From positions 1 to 9,660 of IMG/VR virus record IMGVR_UViG_2636415712_000005: 9,660 nt of DNA; one strand, 5' to 3'. The notes under the pieces were generated by a model that was not told the DNA's origin, searched no databases, and saw nothing but the letters and a program-made list of their open reading frames with translations. Within the stretch, counting starts at the first letter, position 1. Each line of letters begins with the position of its first letter. Positions 1 to 9,660 of the stretch are shown in pieces. A program made the translations under genes and the position numbers. This stretch comes from a virus (taxonomy: Duplodnaviria > Heunggongvirae > Uroviricota > Caudoviricetes).

Positions 1-1169
<1,169 letters not shown>

Positions 1170-1205
1170 TGGAGCACCTGTGTTGTTCTGAGGTGAGCAT
1201 ATCAC

Positions 1206-1241
1206 CTCTGTTCAGGTGGCCAAATTCAGTGTGCCACTTCA
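1206..1241. repeat. IS911 terminal inverted repeat (orfA-proximal end)
   Basis: The IS-outward end at 1241 reads TGAAGTGGCACACTGAATTTGGCCACCTGAACAGAG on the minus strand. It shares the TGAAGTGG...TGGCCACC pattern with the opposite end. Confidence 0.7.
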
Positions 1242-2108
1242 CCTGGCTGGGATTTTGTGTCTGATGCAGAGCGACTGATGTTCTCCCGTGAGCTAAACCG
1301 CGACATGGGCATCAGTTACTTCCTGAACCCTGACGATTACCGCAAAGCAGGCCGCAACCTGGTAGATGGTGACATCTTCGGGCGCGTTCCTGAAGAAGCA
1401 TATCGAAACGGTACTATTCAGCGTCAGATTGCTGGCTTTGATGAAATTCTTCGCTCACCGAAACTTCCGGCAGTTACCAAGTCAACCGCGACTGGTGTAA
1501 CTGTTTCTGGTGCGCAGAAGTTTAAGCCGCAGGCATACACCCTTGATACCGATGGTAACAAAGAGAACGTCGACAACCGTGTTGCAACGGTGACCGTATC
1601 CTCCACCACCGGATTTAAGCGCGGCGACAAAATCAGCTTCATTGGTGTGAAGTTCCTGTCTCAGATGGCGAAGAATGTGCTGACTGATGACGCGACTTTC
1701 TCAATCACCCGTGTGATCGATGGTACTCACATCGAAATCACGCCGAAGCCGATTGCGCTGGATGACGCGTCACTGACAAAAGAAGAGAAGGCTTACGCTA
1801 ACGTAAACACCTCTCTTGCTGATACCACTCCGGTAAACGTTCTGAACGTGGCAACAACCACCGCTAACGTGTTCTGGGCTGATGACTCAATCCGCCTGCT
1901 GTCTCAGCCGATCCCGGTAACCCATGAACTGTTTGCTGGCATGAAAACGTCTTCCTTCAGCATTCCAGGTATTGGTGTTAACGGCATCTTCGCAACGCAG
2001 GGTGATATCAACACTCTGTCTGGTAAGTGCCGTATTGCTGTGTGGTATTCAGCATGTGCTGTACGACCAGAGGCAATTGGTGTTGGTCTGCCTAACCAGA
2101 CCGCGTGA
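1242..2108 (+). pseudogene. 3' fragment (about 288 codons) of a P22-type major capsid (coat, gene 5) gene, interrupted by the IS911 insertion
   Basis: The reading frame is open from the first base after the IS911 end (translation ...[27 protein letters not shown]...) to TGA at 2106-2108. The sequence strongly resembles the C-terminal two-thirds of P22 coat protein as I recall it ([38 protein letters not shown], ending ...GVGLP-QTA). The N-terminal ~140 codons must lie beyond the IS, outside the window. Confidence 0.85.
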
Positions 2109-2116
2109 TAACCAGA

Positions 2117-2138
2117 GGGAGCTTCGGCTCCCGTTTTT
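2117..2138 (+). terminator. Intrinsic terminator-like hairpin 10 nt downstream of the coat stop
   Basis: GGGAGC (2117-2122), TTCG loop (2123-2126), GCTCCC (2127-2132): a perfect 6-bp GC-rich stem with a UUCG tetraloop, followed by G then TTTTT (2134-2138). Confidence 0.6.
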
Positions 2139-2152
2139 ATCTGGAGACAAGC

Positions 2153-2377
2153 ATGACACACATGATCTTTCGTCATGGCGACATGAAGAAGTGGAAAGGC
2201 GTTGGCTACGACTTTGAAATCGTGAAAGCCGAAGAGCTTCAGGAATATCTGGATGCTGGCTGGTTTTCACATCCTGATGACCTTTTGAAGGATGTTGCAG
2301 AGCCAGAAGAAAAACAGTGTAAAAAGCCTGGTCGAAAACCTAAGGCGGCAGCAGATGAACCTGACAACGAAGGGTGA
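2153..2377 (+). CDS. Small hypothetical protein (74 aa) between coat and gp4; occupies the position of the small ORF found here in P22-like phages
   Basis: ATG at 2153 preceded by GGAGA (2143-2147) with 5-nt spacing. Product [74 protein letters not shown]. Its 3' end overlaps the gp4 start by 23 nt. No family recognised; coding status rests on the RBS and the compact operon context. Confidence 0.5.
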
Positions 2378-2855
2378 TTTAGTTCTTGCGGCATTACGTA
2401 AGCTCGGTGTTGCATCAAATGCCACGTTAACCGATGTCGAACCGCAGTCTATGGAAGACGGCGTCAACGACCTTGAAATGATGATGGCTGAATGGCTTGG
2501 CGGTGATGCGTCACCTGGTATCAACGTTGGCTACATTTTTGCTGATGCAGATGTTGCTCCGGATCCGGGCGATGAGCACGGTTTATCAAATAACGCTATC
2601 AATGCCGTCATTTTCAACCTTGCCTGCCGAATTGCTCCAGATTATGCGCTGGAAGCGTCTGCAAAACTTATAACCACTGCCAGATACGGGAAAGAGCGAC
2701 TCGTCAAACTGTCTGCAATGGACAGGGCAAAAGCAGCTAAATGTAAGTCCGGTTATCCAAACCGTATGCCTGTTGGTAGTGGTAACCAGTTGGCGAAGTG
2801 GAATGGTTGGAATTACTTCCACCGAAAGGAACCTTGCGATAACGGGAGCGAATAA
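2355..2855 (+). CDS. P22 gp4-like tail accessory / packaged-DNA stabilisation protein (166 aa)
   Basis: Start [33 protein letters not shown]... chosen over the track's upstream start (2292) because it follows an AAGGCGG Shine-Dalgarno and gives 166 aa, the length of P22 gp4. Motifs remembered from gp4 are present ([40 protein letters not shown]). Stop TAA overlaps the next ATG (TAATG). Confidence 0.8.
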
Positions 2856-4273
2856 TGCCTATTCAGCAACTTCCGCTTATGAAAGGTGTCGGCAAAGACT
2901 TCCGAAACGCCGACTATATCGACTATCTGCCAGTGAATATGCTGGCTACACCCAAAGAAATCCTGAACAGCAGCGGATATCTTCGCTCATTCCCGGGCAT
3001 TGCCAAACGTTCTGACGTGAACGGTGTATCTCGCGGCGTCGAGTACAACATGGCGCAGAATGCTGTTTATCGCGTGTGTGGCGGCAAGCTGTACAAAGGA
3101 GAAAGTGAAGTCGGTGATGTTGCCGGAAGTGGTCGTGTATCAATGGCGCATGGTCGGACATCACAGGCGGTAGGCGTTAATGGTCAACTGGTCGAGTATC
3201 GCTATGATGGCACGGTCAAAACCGTCTCAAACTGGCCTACAGACAGTGGATTCACTCAGTATGAGTTAGGTTCAGTTCGCGACATTACGCGCTTACGTGG
3301 GCGTTATGCGTGGTCAAAAGACGGAACTGATTCATGGTTTATCACTGACCTTGAAGACGAATCTCATCCTGACCGTTACAGCGCACAATATCGTGCCGAG
3401 TCTCAGCCTGACGGCATCATCGGTATCGGGACATGGCGAGACTTCATCGTCTGCTTTGGTTCATCGACTATTGAATATTTCTCCCTGACTGGCGCAACCA
3501 CCGTTGGTGCCGCTTTGTATGTTGCACAACCATCGCTGATGGTGCAGAAAGGCATTGCCGGAACTTACTGCAAAACGCCATTCGCTGATTCGTATGCGTT
3601 TATCAGCAATCCGGCAACGGGTGCGCCGTCTGTGTATATCATCGACTCCGGTCAGGTGTCACCAATTGCCAGCGCGAGCATTGAGAAAATCCTCCGCTCC
3701 TACACTGCTGATGAACTGGCTGATGGTGTGATGGAATCGCTGCGATTTGATGCTCATGAGTTGCTGATTATCCACCTTCCGCGTCACGTCCTCGTGTACG
3801 ACGCATCTTCAAGCGCCAATGGCCCACAATGGTGTGTGCTGAAAACAGGTCTGTATGACGATGTGTACCGCGCTATCGACTTCGTTTACGAAGGCAATCA
3901 GATAACGTGCGGCGATAAGCTGGAATCTGTTACCGGGAAACTGCAATTCGATATCAGCAGCCAGTACGACAAGCAACAGGAACACCTGCTGTTTACTCCA
4001 CTCTTCAAAGCGGATAACGCCAGAGTGTTCGACCTTGAGGTTGAATCGTCAACTGGCGTTGCGCAGTACGCCGACCGCCTTTTTCTCTCTGCAACCACTG
4101 ACTGCATCAATTACGGGCGTGAGCAGATGATTGAGCAGAATGAACCGTTCGTTTACGACAAGCGTGTTTTGTGGAAGCGAGTAGGGCGCATCAGGAAAAA
4201 TGTCGGCTTCAAATTGCGCGTTATCACGAAGTCACCTGTCACTCTGTCTGGCGCTCAGATAAGGATTGAGTAA
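2855..4273 (+). CDS. P22 gp10-like tail accessory / packaged-DNA stabilisation protein (472 aa)
   Basis: Synteny directly after gp4 and a length of 472 aa, identical to P22 gp10. Start overlaps the gp4 stop (TAATG at 2853-2857); stop overlaps the next start (TAATG at 4271-4275). Confidence 0.85.
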
Positions 4274-5070
4274 TGGCTGATTCGAATCTCAATGTGCCGG
4301 TAATCATCCAAGCTACGCGGCTCGATACATCAGTCCTTCCACGCAATATCTTCTCGCAGTCGTATCTGCTTTACGTTATCGCACAGGGCACTGATGTTGG
4401 TAACGTGGCTAACAAAGCCAACGAGGCCGGACAGGGCGCTTATGATGCACAGGTCAGGAACGATGAGCAGGATGTGATTCTCGCTGACCATGAGCAGCGA
4501 ATTTCTGCTGCGGAAGCAACGCTTGTTAATCATGAGGAGCGAATCAGACAGGCAGAATCAACTCTTCAGGACCATGAAACACGAATAGCTCAGAATGAAA
4601 GCGATATTTCGTCGCTTGACACAAGAGTTCAGTCGCTGGAGTCGCAGGTTTCAGACCATGAAACGCGCATCGATGCTCTGGAGTATGCAACCACACGCAA
4701 GAAGTCAGAGGTTGTTTACTCTGGTGTATCTGTAACCATCCCGACAGCGCCGACCAACCTTGTTAGCCTGCTGAAAACGCTCACACCGTCATCCGGCTCG
4801 TTGGCACCATTCTTCGACACCGTTAACAACAAGATGGTTGTGTTCAACGAGAACAAAACCCTGCTCTTCAAGTTGTCGATTGTCGGCACGTGGCCCAGCG
4901 GAACCGCCAACAGGTCAATGCAGCTAACCTTTTCCGGCTCTGTTCCTGACACACTGGTCAGCAGTCGTAATGCGGCGACAACAACCGACAACATCCTGTT
5001 AGCTACGTTCTTCAGCGTGGATAAAGACGGCTTTCTTGCCACAACCATCAAGATAATCGCGGAGCAGTGA
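4273..5070 (+). CDS. Tail needle (P22 gp26-like N-terminus, trimeric coiled-coil shaft, divergent C-terminal distal domain), 265 aa
   Basis: N-terminus [43 protein letters not shown]... resembles the conserved gp26 N-terminal portal/gp10-plug domain as I recall it. Residues ~60-137 are a heptad-periodic segment with four D/N-H-E-x-R-I motifs spaced by 14 or 28 residues. Residues ~140-265 are beta-rich and not coiled-coil, unlike the all-helical P22 gp26. Confidence 0.85.
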
Positions 5071-5525
5071 TGATTACATTCAAACCAACGCGAAACATCG
5101 ACCTGATAGAAGCAGTCGGAAATCACCCTGACATTATCGCCGGGAGCAACAACGGTGATGGATACGACTACAAACCTGAATGCCGTTACTTTGAGGTGAA
5201 CGTGCACGGTCAGTTTGGCGGCATTGTTTACTATCAGGAGATTCAGCCGCTGACATTAGATTGCCACGCCATGTACCTGCCAGAGATTCGCGGCTTCAGC
5301 AAGGAAATTGGGCTGGCGTTCTGGCGATACATTCTGACTAACACCACCGTTCAGTGCGTAACATCGTTCGCTGCACGCAAATTCCGACACGGTCAGATGT
5401 ACTGCGCAATGATTGGCCTTAAGCGTGTAGGAACCATCAAGAAATACTTCAAAGGCGTGGATGACGTGACTTTTTACAGCGCCACACGCGAAGAACTAAT
5501 CGACTTCCTGAATCACGGGAGATAG
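5070..5525 (+). CDS. Gene-14-position protein (P22 gp14-like by synteny; virion assembly / ejection-associated), 151 aa
   Basis: ATG at 5070 overlaps the tail-needle stop (TGATG); the track uses a GTG one codon upstream (5067). Assignment is by position between the tail needle and the gp7-like gene; I do not recall the gp14 sequence well enough to confirm by similarity. Confidence 0.55.
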   Translation: MITFKPTRNIDLIEAVGNHPDIIAGSNNGDGYDYKPECRYFEVNVHGQFGGIVYYQEIQPLTLDCHAMYLPEIRGFSKEIGLAFWRYILTNTTVQCVTSFAARKFRHGQMYCAMIGLKRVGTIKKYFKGVDDVTFYSATREELIDFLNHGR

Positions 5526-5527
5526 CC

Positions 5528-6136
5528 ATGTTATATGCATTTAAGCTGGGCAGAAAACTGTGCGGCGAGGAACCTTATTGCCCTGAAAAAGGCGGGAAAG
5601 GTGGCAGTTCTGATAAAAGCGCAAAGTATGCAGCAGAAGCCCAGAAGTATGCTGCAGACCTGCAAAATCAGCAGTGGCAGACGATCATGAAAAACCTTGC
5701 TCCGTTCACGCCTCTTGCGGAGCAGTATGTTAACCAGCTTCAGAACCTTTCCAGTTTAGAAGGTCAGGGGCAGGCACTTAATCAGTATTACAACTCTAAG
5801 CAGTATAAAGACCTTGCAGGGCAGGCGCGTTACCAGAGTCTTGCTGCTGCGGAGGCGACGGGTGGACTTGGTTCGACAGCCACAAGCAATCAACTGGCTA
5901 CGATCGCGCCGACACTCGGTCAGTCTTGGTTATCAAATCAGATGAGCAATTACAACAATCTGGCAAACGTTGGGCTTGGTGCGCTGCAAGGTCAGGCAAA
6001 CGCCGGGCAGACGTACGCCAACAACATGAGCAGCATTGCACAGCAAAGCGCAGCTCTTGCCAGCCTTTTGGGAACATCAACGCCTTGGGGCGCTGGTATT
6101 GGTGCTGGTATCGGATTGCTTGGCTCGTTGTTTTAA
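5528..6136 (+). CDS. P22 gp7-like ejection (internal virion) protein, 202 aa
   Basis: N-terminus MLYAFKLGRKLCGEEPYCPEKGGKGGSS resembles the gp7 leader region as I recall it. GGGAG Shine-Dalgarno at 5516-5520. Gly/Ala/Gln-rich with a C-terminal glycine-zipper-like hydrophobic tail (WGAGIGAGIGLLGSLF). Correct synteny. Confidence 0.75.
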   Translation: MLYAFKLGRKLCGEEPYCPEKGGKGGSSDKSAKYAAEAQKYAADLQNQQWQTIMKNLAPFTPLAEQYVNQLQNLSSLEGQGQALNQYYNSKQYKDLAGQARYQSLAAAEATGGLGSTATSNQLATIAPTLGQSWLSNQMSNYNNLANVGLGALQGQANAGQTYANNMSSIAQQSAALASLLGTSTPWGAGIGAGIGLLGSLF

Positions 6137-6145
6137 GGGGTAATC

Positions 6146-7477
6146 ATGGCTACTTGGCAAGGAACAAACGGCGGATTGTTGGCTGGTATCGGCGGCGTCA
6201 ACTCAAACGCTCCGAGCGTAAATGACATCGGCAATACGCTTCAGCTTATCAGGCAGAACAATGATATTGAGCGTTCAGGCGCTAACAATGTTGGGCTGAC
6301 TGCTTTGCAAGGTCTTTCAGGTATTGCGGGTGTTTTTCAGCAGGAAAAGCAGGCTCAGCGGCAGAAAGAATTTCAGCAGGCGTACGCTAATGCTTATGCG
6401 TCTGGTGATCGCGGTGCTTTGCGTCAGTTGGCTACTCAATATCCAGACCAGATTGAATCCGTTCGTAAAGGCATGGGATTCATTGATGAAGAGCAGCGTA
6501 ATTCTATCGGCACCTTAGCGGCTGGCGCACGCCTTGCGTCATCGTCTCCAGAAGCAATGCAATCATGGCTGCAAAACAACGCCGGTGAGTTAGCTCGTGT
6601 TGGCGTTAATCCTCATGACGTCGCTCAGATGTACCAACAGAACCCGCGGCAGTTCGGCGAATTTGTCGATCACCTGGGGATGAACAGTCTCGGGCCCGAA
6701 AAATACTTTGACCTACAGGATAAAATGCAGGGTCGCCAGGTTACCATGCGCGGTCAGGATCTGGATTCGCAAACCGCCGCTCGGAATCAGGCAATCACAA
6801 TGCGCGGACAAGATATCCAGGCGAATTTAGGTCAGCAGCGCATTAATCTGGACGCAGAAACAAACCGCATTAACAACGAAAATAAGCGCCTTGACCGGAT
6901 GCTATCAGCAGAAACTAACGACCTGAAGCGCCAGGAAATACAGAGCCGCATAGCAGCCAACAACCAGCAGTTGCAGCAGAAGCAGCAAGCGCTAAATGAT
7001 GGCTACAAAGACGGCATCAACACCCTCACAACCAGCATGTTCACTCTGAACGATATCGTTAGTTCTCCTTCACTTAAGAGCATTACAGGCTTACGTGGAG
7101 TAATCCCCAACGTTCCAGGCTCACAGGCTGCAGACACTCAGGCACGACTTGATACCTTTAAATCACAAGCATACCTGACAGCGGTTCAGGCCATGCGAGG
7201 CATGGGCGCACTTTCTGATGCCGAGGGCAAAAAGCTCGACCAGGCTGTTGGTTCGCTGCAGAACTCGCAGAGCGAGGAGTCCTTTCGTCGCAACGCTGGC
7301 GTCATCCTGAACACGCTCAACCAGAAGCGTAATGAGGCGGTTGGTAAGTACGTTCAGCAAAACGGTATCAAGCGAGTGGAAGCGCCTCAGGCTTCTATAG
7401 ATTACCTGAAGCAGCACCCCGAGCTGTCAATCGACTTCATTAATCGCTACGGATATCTTCCATCTTTGGGGCAGTAA
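6146..7477 (+). CDS. P22 gp20-like ejection (internal virion) protein, 443 aa
   Basis: Synteny after gp7, with AAGGGG Shine-Dalgarno at 6135-6140. Gly-rich N-terminus and a long Q/N-rich predicted coiled-coil (RINNENKRLDRMLSAETNDLKRQEIQSRIAANNQQLQQKQQALN). Stop TAA is immediately followed by the next ATG (TAAATG). Confidence 0.7.
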   Translation: MATWQGTNGGLLAGIGGVNSNAPSVNDIGNTLQLIRQNNDIERSGANNVGLTALQGLSGIAGVFQQEKQAQRQKEFQQAYANAYASGDRGALRQLATQYPDQIESVRKGMGFIDEEQRNSIGTLAAGARLASSSPEAMQSWLQNNAGELARVGVNPHDVAQMYQQNPRQFGEFVDHLGMNSLGPEKYFDLQDKMQGRQVTMRGQDLDSQTAARNQAITMRGQDIQANLGQQRINLDAETNRINNENKRLDRMLSAETNDLKRQEIQSRIAANNQQLQQKQQALNDGYKDGINTLTTSMFTLNDIVSSPSLKSITGLRGVIPNVPGSQAADTQARLDTFKSQAYLTAVQAMRGMGALSDAEGKKLDQAVGSLQNSQSEESFRRNAGVILNTLNQKRNEAVGKYVQQNGIKRVEAPQASIDYLKQHPELSIDFINRYGYLPSLGQ

Positions 7478-9208
7478 ATGGCTAATTACCGTGATTTGTT
7501 AGAGCAGGCTGGCGCACGTTACGGTGTGCCAGAAGGGTTGATGACTGCACTGGGTGCCAAGGAGTCTTCTTACAACCCTGCCGCAGTAAGCTCCGCCGGG
7601 GCTGTAGGATTGACTCAGGTCATGCCTGGGACATGGCGTGATATGGGTTATACCGATGAGCAAATGCAAAACCCCGAATATCAGGCTGACGCTGGCGCGC
7701 GCTATCTGGCAAAGATGTACCAGCAGTTTGGTAACTGGCGTGACGCTCTTCAGGCTTATCACGACGGTCCCGGCAACGTTATGAAGGCAAAGCGTGGTGA
7801 ATATACGCCAGGACCTGAAGGCCGCGGTTACGTTGATGATCGCTTTGCTCAATGGGCTGGTGACCCGGTGACAGACTCAACAGTCGAACAGCGCGCCACC
7901 TCTGCAAAGGTACATCCTCAGCAAGACCCTAACAACCCGTTTGCACAACTGGAAGTACAGTCATCCGAACAAGTATCGGCATCAGGTGTGCAGTCAGACC
8001 CAAATAATCCATTTGCTCAGATTGAGCAGCAGGCAGCCAGTCAGCAGCCACCTCAACCCGTAAGTTCTGTCGCACCGAAACCTGTTCAGCAACAAACAGT
8101 TAATCAGGCCAATAATGCACCAACACGGGAAGAACCATCATTGATGCAACAAGCTGGCGATTGGCTCACTGGTGGTCAAAGTGCAGGGCAAATTGCAGAA
8201 CAGGCTGGTCGTGGTCTGGTAAACATACCATTTGACGTATTGCAGGGTGGCGCAAGTCTGATTAATGCAATCAGTCAGGGGCTTGGGGGGCCAAAAGTAT
8301 TGGATGATGTTTATCGTCCAGTAGACAGACCGACAGACCCCTACGCGCAAGCTGGAGAGTCAATAGGCGGTTATCTTGTTCCTGGAGCAGGTGTAGCTGG
8401 AAACATGGTCATTGGTTCTCTCGCTGACGCGGCGAATCAACGGGGTGATTTTGCCGAAAATGCCGCTATTAATGCCGGACTTAGCATTGCTACGCATGGC
8501 CTGATAAATGGCGTTACCCGTGGTGTTCGTGGTGCATCAAATATAATTAGTGGCAATAAAACATCTGCACAGAGAGCGACCACTGCGCCAACAGAAACAT
8601 CACCATTCTCCGGTGATGCCGCTGCAGCAACAAATCCTGCGGTTCATGCCGCAGAGGCAAGAGTAGCACAAGGTGTACCAATGACGCCTGCGACGAAGAA
8701 CCCAGAGGAAGTCGTTCGCACAGTAGCAGCACAAAAAAGGCCAAATCTCGCTTCATCGCTTGATGAACTAGATATCAATCCTCAGGCTGAAGTTCTGGAG
8801 TCTGCTGAAAGGCTTAATGTTGATTCATTACTCCCTTCACACTTTTCCGGGAACGAGCAATACAAGGCAGTTGAGCAAGCAATCAAGTCCCGTGCGGGTT
8901 CTGCTCTACAGGTGCAGGAAAATGAAGCAATCAGGCAGCTAGCACAGGGCGCGGGTGAGATAATTGATCGCGTTTCCGGTGCAAAAGATGCTCTTGGTAT
9001 GAGCGACAAGTTTATTGATACGGTCAATGGAAGAATGTCTGCGCTGATGAAACGAAGCGACCAGCTTTATCGCAATGTTGAAAAGGCGATGCCTGCAGGT
9101 GCAAAAATTGATGCGCCATCAACAAGGTCAATGCTCAAACAGGTGGCAGAAGATCTTGGCGGGATGAAAAACCTTGACCCTATTGAAAAGAGAGTTGAGG
9201 TAGCCTGA
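7478..9208 (+). CDS. Gene-16-position ejection protein with N-terminal lytic transglycosylase (SLT) domain, 576 aa
   Basis: Residues ~20-125 carry family-1 SLT hallmarks: catalytic Glu in GAKESSYNP (codon at 7562-7564), [14 protein letters not shown], and [13 protein letters not shown]-rich linker follows with two tandem DPNNPFAQ(L/I)E repeats (7925-7960 and 7997-8032), then a ~380-aa C-terminal region. Position corresponds to P22 gene 16. Confidence 0.8.
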
Positions 9209-9220
9209 GTTTAACGGACA

Positions 9221-9253
9221 CTCCTTCCTGAAATAGAATGGCATCAGAAGGAG
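9221..9253 (+). promoter_or_regulatory. Inverted repeat able to sequester the Shine-Dalgarno of the downstream (IS-truncated) gene
   Basis: CTCCTTC (9221-9227) is the exact reverse complement of GAAGGAG (9247-9253), which is the Shine-Dalgarno of the ATG at 9260. A 7-bp stem with a 19-nt loop. Confidence 0.3.
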
Positions 9254-9259
9254 CTAATA

Positions 9260-9279
9260 ATGAGCAGAAAAACCCAACG
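9260..9279 (+). pseudogene. 5' stub of an unknown gene (MSRKTQR...) truncated by the IS629 insertion
   Basis: Strong Shine-Dalgarno AAGGAG (9248-9253), 6-nt spacer, ATG at 9260. The frame runs straight into the IS629 terminal repeat after 7 codons. Confidence 0.4.
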
Positions 9280-9305
9280 TGAACCGCCCCGGGAATCCTG
9301 GAGAC
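9280..9305. repeat. IS629 left terminal inverted repeat
   Basis: Begins with the IS3-family terminal TG(A) at 9280. The exact inner boundary cannot be set without the partner repeat, which lies outside the window. Confidence 0.55.
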
Positions 9306-9333
9306 TAAACTTCCTGAGAAAGAGGTAAACAGG

Positions 9334-9660
9334 ATGACTAAAAATACTCGTTTTTCCCCCGAAGTCCGTCAACGGGCAGTCCGTATGGTTCTGGAAAGTC
9401 AGGGCGAATATGACTCACAATGGGCGACAATTTGTTCCATTGCCCCAAAGATTGGCTGTACGCCGGAGACTCTGCGTGTCTGGGTTCGCCAGCATGAGCG
9501 GGATACCGGGGGCGGTGATGGAGGGCTCACCACCGCTGAACGTCAGCGTCTGAAAGAGCTGGAGCGTGAAAATCGTGAACTGCGCCGCAGTAACGATATC
9601 CTTCGCCAGGCTTCCGCTTATTTTGCGAAGGCGGAGTTCGACCGCCTCTGGAAAAAATGA
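9334..9660 (+). CDS. IS629 OrfA (helix-turn-helix transposase N-terminal subunit, 108 aa)
   Basis: [108 protein letters not shown], with stop TGA at 9658-9660 exactly at the window end. An A-rich tract (GGAAAAAATGA) at the orfA terminus is where orfB would overlap. Confidence 0.9.

Follow-up and report, generated by a model that had tools for sequence, protein, structure and literature searches.

The window analysed here, by which we mean the whole stretch of 9,660 nucleotides, has in common with loci of identical sequence a run of genes in the order gp4-like, gp10-like, needle, DUF2824 (gene 14), gp7, gp20 and gp16, which is the gene order of phage Sf6. The ORF at 4273-5070 lies between the gp10-like hub gene and the gene-14/ejection-protein genes, as the needle gene does in the late operon of P22-like phages, and its stop codon is overlapped by the ATG of the gene-14 homologue (TGATG). 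In a PHROGs search, the 265-aa product matched phrog_1030 'tail needle knob' (E 2.2e-119) while its residues 1-146 matched phrog_1219 'tail needle protein' (E 2.8e-51). These assignments, along with the gp26 and knob matches described below, identify the ORF by homology as the gene for the tail needle of a prophage resembling Sf6 (P22-like, Lederbergvirus), in agreement with the first-pass annotation, which had called it a needle gene from the letters alone. Three ORFs antisense to the needle gene (4330-4533, 4544-4696 and 4716-5207, all on the minus strand) were rejected as incidental, the coding gene that they oppose being strongly supported. The features to which we refer are the following:

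2855-4273, plus strand: upstream gene, homologue of P22 gp10 / Sf6 gp8 (the hub plugged by the needle), 472 aa, assigned from PF11134 (Phage_stabilise) in identical loci and from the Sf6 gene order
4273-5070, plus strand: tail needle gene, homologue of Sf6 gene 9 / P22 gene 26, with ATG start, TGA stop and 265 codons
4273-4452, plus strand: N-terminal plug (tail-hub-binding) domain, aa 1-60, assigned from the match to the P22 gp26 cryo-EM entry 8eap_B
4453-4692, plus strand: predicted trimeric coiled-coil shaft, aa 61-140, about 11 heptads in unbroken register, from heptad analysis and homology to the gp26 helical core (2poh, 3c9i, 4lin)
4486-4503, plus strand: DHEQRI motif, aa 72-77, from the motif scan; DNA repeat D1
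4528-4545, plus strand: NHEERI motif, aa 86-91, from the motif scan; DNA repeat
4570-4587, plus strand: DHETRI motif, aa 100-105, from the motif scan; DNA repeat
4654-4671, plus strand: DHETRI motif, aa 128-133, from the motif scan; DNA repeat
4693-5067, plus strand: shortened Sf6-type knob (PF16532), aa 141-265 vs. 141-282, from Pfam and the 3rwn_A and 4k6b_A matches
5037-5044, plus strand: deletion junction with the one remaining copy of the 8-bp direct repeat TGCCACAA, from alignment with Sf6 DNA and protein
5070-5525, plus strand: downstream gene, homologue of P22 gene 14 / Sf6 gene 10 (DUF2824), 151 aa, assigned from gene order and identical loci

The exact 265-aa protein is already public as 'tail needle knob protein [Shigella flexneri]', being found on 343 contigs of which the longest measures 4.66 Mb, and a contig of assembly GCA_000815665.1 (locus L005) matches the whole window at 100% identity. 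One source gives E. coli as the label for the same protein. The needle family, the coiled-coil shaft, the Sf6-type knob and this very protein are thus already known and are correctly named in databases.

The proximal part of the protein closely resembles the P22 needle. A PDB sequence search aligned residues 3-64 with residues 1-62 of gp26 (8eap_B, the N-terminal piece in the P22 tail; E 1.6e-27), with ~49 of the 60 plug residues identical as counted by hand from the alignment, so that the conserved N-terminal plug of ~60 residues that typifies P22 gp26-type needles is present. The same search matched residues 1-144 with the gp26 structures 2POH, 3C9I and 4ZKP (E about 4e-43). Distal to the plug, a regular-expression scan for [DN]HE.RI returned four motifs with spacings of 14, 14 and 28 residues, a number beyond chance given that two or more motifs arose in only 1 of 200,000 shuffles of residues 60-140. 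With the position of the motif Ile taken as the register marker over residues 58-140, the successive residues at this position are N L I L I L I I V V I T, aliphatic in 10 of 12 heptads without any stutter, and those found four residues before them are A Q H A H A H N L L H L. From this pattern, we read the shaft as keeping a single heptad register throughout, its two core positions being occupied by Ile/Leu/Val and by the motif His, respectively. At the DNA level, the motifs are underlain by 23-nt direct repeats that lie 42, 42 and 84 nt apart and are 65-78% identical to the first copy. An AF2 model of the 265-aa protein as a monomer displayed a single helix over residues 42-145, with pLDDT >90 over residues 71-130; the heptads, the homology and this model together point to a continuous helical core able to trimerise, as in gp26-type needles. 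The first-pass annotation had recognized in this part of the protein a gp26 plug of ~60 residues, followed by a heptad coiled-coil shaft bearing four D/N-H-E-x-R-I motifs spaced 14 or 28 residues apart, and these readings are borne out by the structural matches and the unbroken register.

The distal part is of a different origin. All alignments to gp26 chains stop at query residue 137-149, and the P22 helical tip (gp26 residues 141-233) displayed no homology to the protein. The domain found there scored 334.4 bits (cut-off 27) with PF16532 ('Sf6-type phage tail needle knob', Phage_tail_NK), and residues 130-258 matched the knobs 3RWN (Sf6 'Gene 9 protein', E 1.2e-74) and 4K6B (HS1, E 1.2e-73) in the PDB sequence search, with 4-5 mismatches in ~129 residues. 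Judging from these matches, the distal domain is the known Sf6/HS1 knob, structures of which date from 2011 and 2013 (3RWN and 4K6B). The last ~125 residues had been described in the first pass as beta-type and not P22-like, which agrees with the end of gp26 homology at ~144 and with the PF16532/3RWN match, but as a candidate determinant this domain is not new, since it already has its own Pfam family and two structures. As for the comparison with Sf6/HK620-type knobs that had been recommended, near identity was indeed found with Sf6, whereas HK620 has a P22-type tip of subtype A and no knob (PMC3741392).

The knob of the 265-aa protein falls short of a complete domain, which comprises 175 profile positions and a seven-strand jelly roll: it matched positions 1-152 of PF16532, while all of positions 1-175 were matched by Sf6 gp9 and by a sister allele, P0019, from another S. 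flexneri assembly. What is absent is 51 bp, in frame, corresponding to the 17 residues of Sf6 gp9 aa 256-272, ATNGSTLTIQSNGASFT. In Sf6, the counterpart of this gap is bounded by two copies of TGCCACAA, one of which is left in the window, with overlapping BLAST segments (2850-5044 and 5037-6061) marking the junction. A pair of flanking 8-bp repeats reduced to one copy is characteristic of slippage or illegitimate recombination at short direct repeats. All 11 aligned relatives (267-345 aa) keep the residues lost here, 16 positions being invariant and the remaining one being either Ala or Ser. The 25-letter C-terminal string quoted in the first-pass annotation spans this very junction, which is not recognisable from the sequence alone.

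Matches spanning the junction were looked for in three collections. In a collection of 50,697 phage records, nine cover 80% or more of the gene, and in none of these nine did a match extend over the junction. In 5,426 complete E. coli genomes, the junction was absent from the best-ranked of 809 matching records, in which the probe matched in two pieces with a span of 122 nt, indicating that these best-ranked records contain the 51 bp. Lastly, an exact-match scan of one genome per prokaryotic species did not find the junction in any species representative, probably because S. flexneri does not have a representative of its own in that set. Compared with all these sequences, the 51-bp deletion is to be regarded as derived, and its occurrence here is confined to assemblies labelled S. 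flexneri (with the E. coli label in one source).

We then consider the surroundings of the gene. At the left, a copy of IS911 (window 1-1241, 99.1% identical to annotated IS911) cuts the coat gene at 1241/1242, leaving a coat ORF of 276-283 aa in the window vs. 431 aa in intact relatives; at the right, gene 16 ends at 9208 after 576 codons, where Sf6 and the intact prophage L011 both have 665, and an IS3-family element lies directly after it. Gene 16 is 576 aa in all eight genomic places examined, and no tailspike gene was seen in any of these eight, while L011 has one. The full coat gene, full gene 16 and tailspike gene of an intact P22-like prophage are therefore all missing from the window. 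The RefSeq annotation names the left element as IS911 and does not name the right one. With NCBIfam, only the IS ORFs were matched, as 'IS3 family transposase', and the phage structural proteins were not. The right IS3-family element may be IS629-like. Where complete chromosomes carry the remnant, its neighbours are an oac-type acyltransferase plus integrase fragment on one side and the host psiF-phoA-ddlA region on the other; the prophage described as carrying oac1b (PMC3630932) is a different, non-Sf6 prophage. Most contigs bearing the allele are 5-10 kb in length (585 of 635 index blocks), which fits with a unique segment of ~8 kb trapped between repeated IS copies. On this arrangement of genes and elements, the prophage is best described as a defective, IS-bounded Sf6-like remnant in the Shigella flexneri chromosome. 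Every surviving phage ORF of the ~8-kb remnant is still open, and both of its internal deletions are in frame. Neither the 51-bp deletion nor this defective setting had figured in the first-pass annotation.

Comparison of sister loci allows the losses to be placed in order. The locus of another S. flexneri assembly, L010, aligns to window 1242-9276 at 99.5-100% identity, and because the alignment covers the gene-16 stop plus 68 nt into the IS end, L010 and the window share the same truncating junction. In L010, the knob (P0019, 296 aa) and gene 7 (230 aa) are complete, as is the coat gene. Its needle carries S176, L198 and A234, the same residues that set the window protein apart from Sf6, but differs from the window protein in the intact knob and in a shaft lengthened by a tandem duplication of 42 bp (14 aa, two heptads). 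An identical gene-16/IS junction next to an intact knob implies that the knob was shortened after the prophage had been disabled, provided that there was no recombination between remnants. The remaining loci display progressively more damage: 1) in L003, the knob deletion is present and gene 7 and the coat gene are intact; 2) in L002 and L004, the knob deletion is accompanied by an 84-bp in-frame deletion in gene 7, between 12-bp repeats at window 6050-6061, and by IS911 in the coat gene, with 383 aa left; 3) in L005, which corresponds to the window, a further 288 bp of the coat gene is gone. Read from these alignments, the decay is stepwise, with IS truncation of gene 16 followed by the 51-bp slippage deletion in the knob, then the 84-bp one in gene 7, also ascribed to slippage, and finally coat erosion by IS911. 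The only value that the locus adds is as a neat illustration of how a Shigella flexneri prophage decays step by step.

With regard to the effect of the deletion on the knob, the published knob is a homotrimer with a TNF-like jelly-roll fold made up of seven antiparallel strands (Leavitt et al. 2013, PMC3741392), and an L-glutamate is bound at each subunit interface, contacted in Sf6 by E146, K200, S248, D250, L255 and K277 (PMC3741392). All six contact residues can be found in the 265-aa sequence, as E146, K200, S248, D250, L255 and K260 (equivalent to Sf6 K277); however, L255 and this lysine are 5 residues apart in the shortened allele vs. 22 in Sf6, and the geometry of the pocket is accordingly not to be assumed. 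Strands were assigned from the AF2 model of an intact 282-aa relative, P0002, and the description by Leavitt et al. (2013) rather than from crystal coordinates. The knob of the P0002 model matched 3RWN (Foldseek E 2.7e-18, TM 0.75) and displayed strands at 261-267 and 271-281 with pLDDT of about 84. Mapped on this model, the deletion takes away the entire last-but-one strand together with the turn on either side of it, and it also trims two residues from the start of the final strand. For the 265-aa allele, modelled as a monomer from an equivalent shallow alignment (11-12 close relatives), pLDDT was only 28-41 over residues 140-265, and a fold search with this model gave noise only, with no PDB match at E <= 0.001. 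This collapse in confidence is suggestive of a disrupted fold, bearing in mind that AF2 confidence is not a measure of stability and that both alignments were shallow and both models monomeric. We surmise that the knob, thus shortened, is most likely unable to fold or trimerise as it should, and that its function would be lost along with its fold. With the frame intact and the deletion in frame, the protein could still be made. Wild-type needles are said to melt at 85-95 C.

Taking these data together, we consider it very probable that the locus holds a decaying Sf6-type needle gene in a dead, IS-bounded prophage, in which a slippage or recombination deletion followed the loss of the gene-16 end and the tailspike and probably inactivated the knob. 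The data establish which gene this is, the deletion and the repeat at its junction, the defective setting and the succession of losses; the loss of knob fold and function is the predicted part of this reading. In a working phage, the needle trimer would plug the channel of the tail hub with its N-terminal 60 residues and hold the DNA in, residues 61-140 would form the trimeric coiled-coil shaft of 11 heptads with the motif Ile and His at core positions, and the TNF-like jelly-roll knob would sit at the distal tip, to be ejected with the needle and to influence the speed of DNA delivery. An IS insertion would then have removed the 3' end of gene 16 and the tailspike, disabling the prophage, and replication slippage or illegitimate recombination between the two copies of TGCCACAA would subsequently have removed the 51 bp. 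Since the deletion fell in a prophage already without these parts, it would represent neutral decay, the gene having ceased to contribute to virions. The presence of the allele in hundreds of isolates is what would be expected from clonal descent, although retention for some use is still compatible with it.

Short direct repeats flank the gap in the knob, and since such places can cause certain assemblers or polymerases to slip, one could argue that the gap is an assembly or sequencing artefact and that the true gene is a normal 282-codon Sf6-type needle. We find this vanishingly improbable, recognizing that the identical 265-aa product recurs on 343 contigs / 635 index blocks from independent NCBI and Logan assemblies, that the carriers include three chromosome-scale contigs of >1 Mb, and that an 8-bp repeat is far too short for assembly collapse. 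The deletion being genuine, the allele might still encode a functional needle with a naturally shortened knob, either in an active Sf6-like phage or expressed from the prophage, as an adaptive tip variant that alters envelope contact or DNA-delivery kinetics. The in-frame deletion, the open ORF, the retained ligand-contact residues and the wide distribution of the allele (343 contigs) are in keeping with such a needle, as is the capacity of P22 needle tips to bear drastic engineering, replacement with foldon being still viable (PMC3741392). It is difficult, however, to reconcile with this proposal that gene 16 is cut to 576 aa and the tailspike gene not seen in all eight places, that no record in the collection of 50,697 phage records displayed the junction, that every aligned relative conserves the deleted residues, and that AF2 confidence for the knob collapses relative to the intact relative; in addition, the sister remnant with the same IS junction and an intact knob places the deletion in a prophage that was already dead. 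For these reasons, a working needle with a smaller knob appears improbable to us.

We likewise doubt, and to a similar degree, that the remnant has been domesticated, with the host keeping the needle, ejection-protein and hub genes, modified knob included, for superinfection interference or as a particle-like device. It is true that all the surviving ORFs are open, the 51-bp needle deletion and the 84-bp gene-7 deletion both being in frame, that more than 100 E. coli genomes contain small P22-like remnants that include an Sf6-type needle gene (Leavitt et al., PMC3741392), and that the region of the knob/gene-14 junction was matched in 805 of 5,426 complete E. coli genomes. By chance alone, however, a pair of deletions would both be in frame in ~1 of 9 cases, and the remnant copies are 99.7-100% identical, pointing to a young remnant in which open frames are expected even without selection; moreover, the progressive IS-mediated loss between strains (coat products of 431, 383 and 276 aa) conforms to a pattern of decay and not of conservation. 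That the shorter knob might be a stably folding minimal TNF-like variant, or part of a host-retained needle/ejection cassette useful to the S. flexneri cell, for example against incoming P22-like phages, is in our estimate very improbable. We thus favor decay of an Sf6-type needle gene in a dead prophage, and the finding accordingly matters little, being that of an ordinary, described gene in decay with a late and probably inactivating deletion.

The first-pass annotation had also put the distal domain forward as a candidate host-contact or DNA-delivery determinant. For the family, the second half of this proposal agrees with published work while the first does not: a P22 chimera with the HS1 knob infects Salmonella efficiently, with no host specificity conferred by the knob (Leavitt et al. 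2013, PMC3741392); abolishing glutamate binding had no visible effect, while several alterations of the tip slow the release of K+ (PMC3741392); and, in the conclusion of Leavitt et al. (2013), host specificity is unlikely to be set by the tip, which does affect the kinetics of DNA delivery (PMC3741392). For the window copy, neither half applies, as a needle lacking 17 conserved knob residues in an IS-truncated prophage is very unlikely to be a determinant of anything. The needle trimer of P22-like phages closes the tail channel by means of its N-terminus, extends past the tailspikes and is released in the course of infection (PMC3741392). Sf6-type knobs diverge by no more than 4.9%, are restricted to P22-like phages of Escherichia/Shigella and occur in many small prophage remnants (PMC3741392). 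More distant homologues of the knob, T4-like and Vibrio Mu-like, have 37-63% identity.

Among known needles, P22 gp26 (2POH, 3C9I, 4LIN, 8EAP) shares with the window protein its role and gene position as well as a homologous plug and core (residues 1-144). Its motifs DHEARI and DHESRI coincide in position (72 and 86) with the first two of the window protein, albeit with two motifs in all vs. four. Homology ends at ~144-149, with domains III and IV of gp26 (residues 141-233) comprising a helical tip unrelated to the knob. The needle of the E. coli prophage HS1 (4K6B) is closer at the tip, its knob being ~97% identical over 128 aligned residues (E 1.2e-73) and belonging to the same TNF-like family with bound L-glutamate, but it comprises 16 shaft heptads and a complete knob (PMC3741392), compared to 11 heptads and a shortened knob in the window protein. 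The locus also illustrates that the length of needle shafts varies mostly in whole heptads, via recombination between the DHExRI-encoding repeats. Sf6 gp9 (282 aa), the full needle of which was modelled in a cryo-EM study of the Sf6 tail (PMC9728967), is very close to the window protein. Plug, four DHExRI motifs, 11-heptad shaft, knob sequence and gene order are all alike, with 98.5% DNA identity to Sf6 gene 9 over the full gene and identity at 262 of the 265 residues; what distinguishes the window copy is T176S, F198L and S234A, the missing residues 256-272, and its residence in a defective prophage rather than in the genome of a viable phage.

The length of Sf6-type tail needles varies mostly in whole heptads: the homologues P0016-P0134 comprise proteins of 268, 282, 296, 303, 310, 317, 324, 331, 338 and 345 aa, all of which correspond to 282 aa plus or minus whole multiples of 7 residues, with a few lengths (267, 298, 309 and 316 aa) as exceptions in this set. 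In alignment A3, the inserted or deleted shaft blocks are bounded at both ends by repeats of the DHExRI type, the recurring motif of the coiled-coil shaft; on this basis, the shaft seems to change length in whole heptads through unequal recombination. A distinct type of length variation was found in P0022 and P0023 (285 and 288 aa), in which the tripeptide ANK of ANKANEAG is present in one or two additional copies in A3. This expansion is located at the hinge between plug domain and shaft and represents gain of a 9-bp tandem repeat, which is not a heptad multiple:

4408-4425, aa 46-51 of the window needle (A3 columns 46-51), site of the extra ANK copies

Judging from sequence matches, Sf6-type needle genes are very common in E. 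coli, given that a 71-nt probe, spanning the 3' end of the knob through the start of gene 14 (the DUF2824 gene directly downstream), was matched in 805 of 5,426 complete genomes. Many such needle genes sit in prophage remnants (Leavitt et al. 2013, PMC3741392).

The remnant in the window comprises, beside the needle gene, the following features:

1-1241, minus strand, complete copy of IS911, 99.1% identical to annotated IS911
1242-2108, remaining part of the P22-type coat gene, its interior adjoining IS911
5528-6136, gene 7 homologue (ejection protein, PF25688), 202 aa
7478-9208, gene 16 homologue with SLT lytic transglycosylase and P22_gp16 domains
9209-9660, IS3-family element, starting where gene 16 stops

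Depending on the S. flexneri strain, the coat product that remains beside the same IS911 is 431, 383 or 276 aa long, which suggests that the coat gene has been eroded by successive deletions adjacent to the IS. At the other end, the gene 16 product terminates at 576 aa of a full-length 665 aa. The orfA of the IS3-family element (9334-9660), which may be IS629-like, continues past the window end; similar copies are named in RefSeq only as 'IS3 family transposase', with 'AL1L pseudoknot'.

Flanks were read from complete chromosomes for two identical remnants:

L002, 635-2620
L009, 791-1957

One flank carries an Acyl_transf_3 gene (an oac-like O-antigen acetyltransferase) together with a phage integrase fragment, and the opposite flank carries psiF-phoA-iraP-ddlA. 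The remnant may be what is left of a serotype-converting Sf6-like prophage; argW, the expected attachment site (PMC3630932), was not seen in these flanks.

Within the remnant, BLAST segments against L003, another locus with the 265-aa needle allele, overlap (window 1242-6061 and 6050-9660), revealing that gene 7 lacks 84 bp in frame between 12-bp direct repeats (site 6050-6061). This reads as a slippage-type deletion, the second such event in the remnant. Accordingly shortened, the gene 7 product has 202 aa in the window vs. 230 aa in Sf6, L003, the sister remnant L010 and the intact prophage L011.
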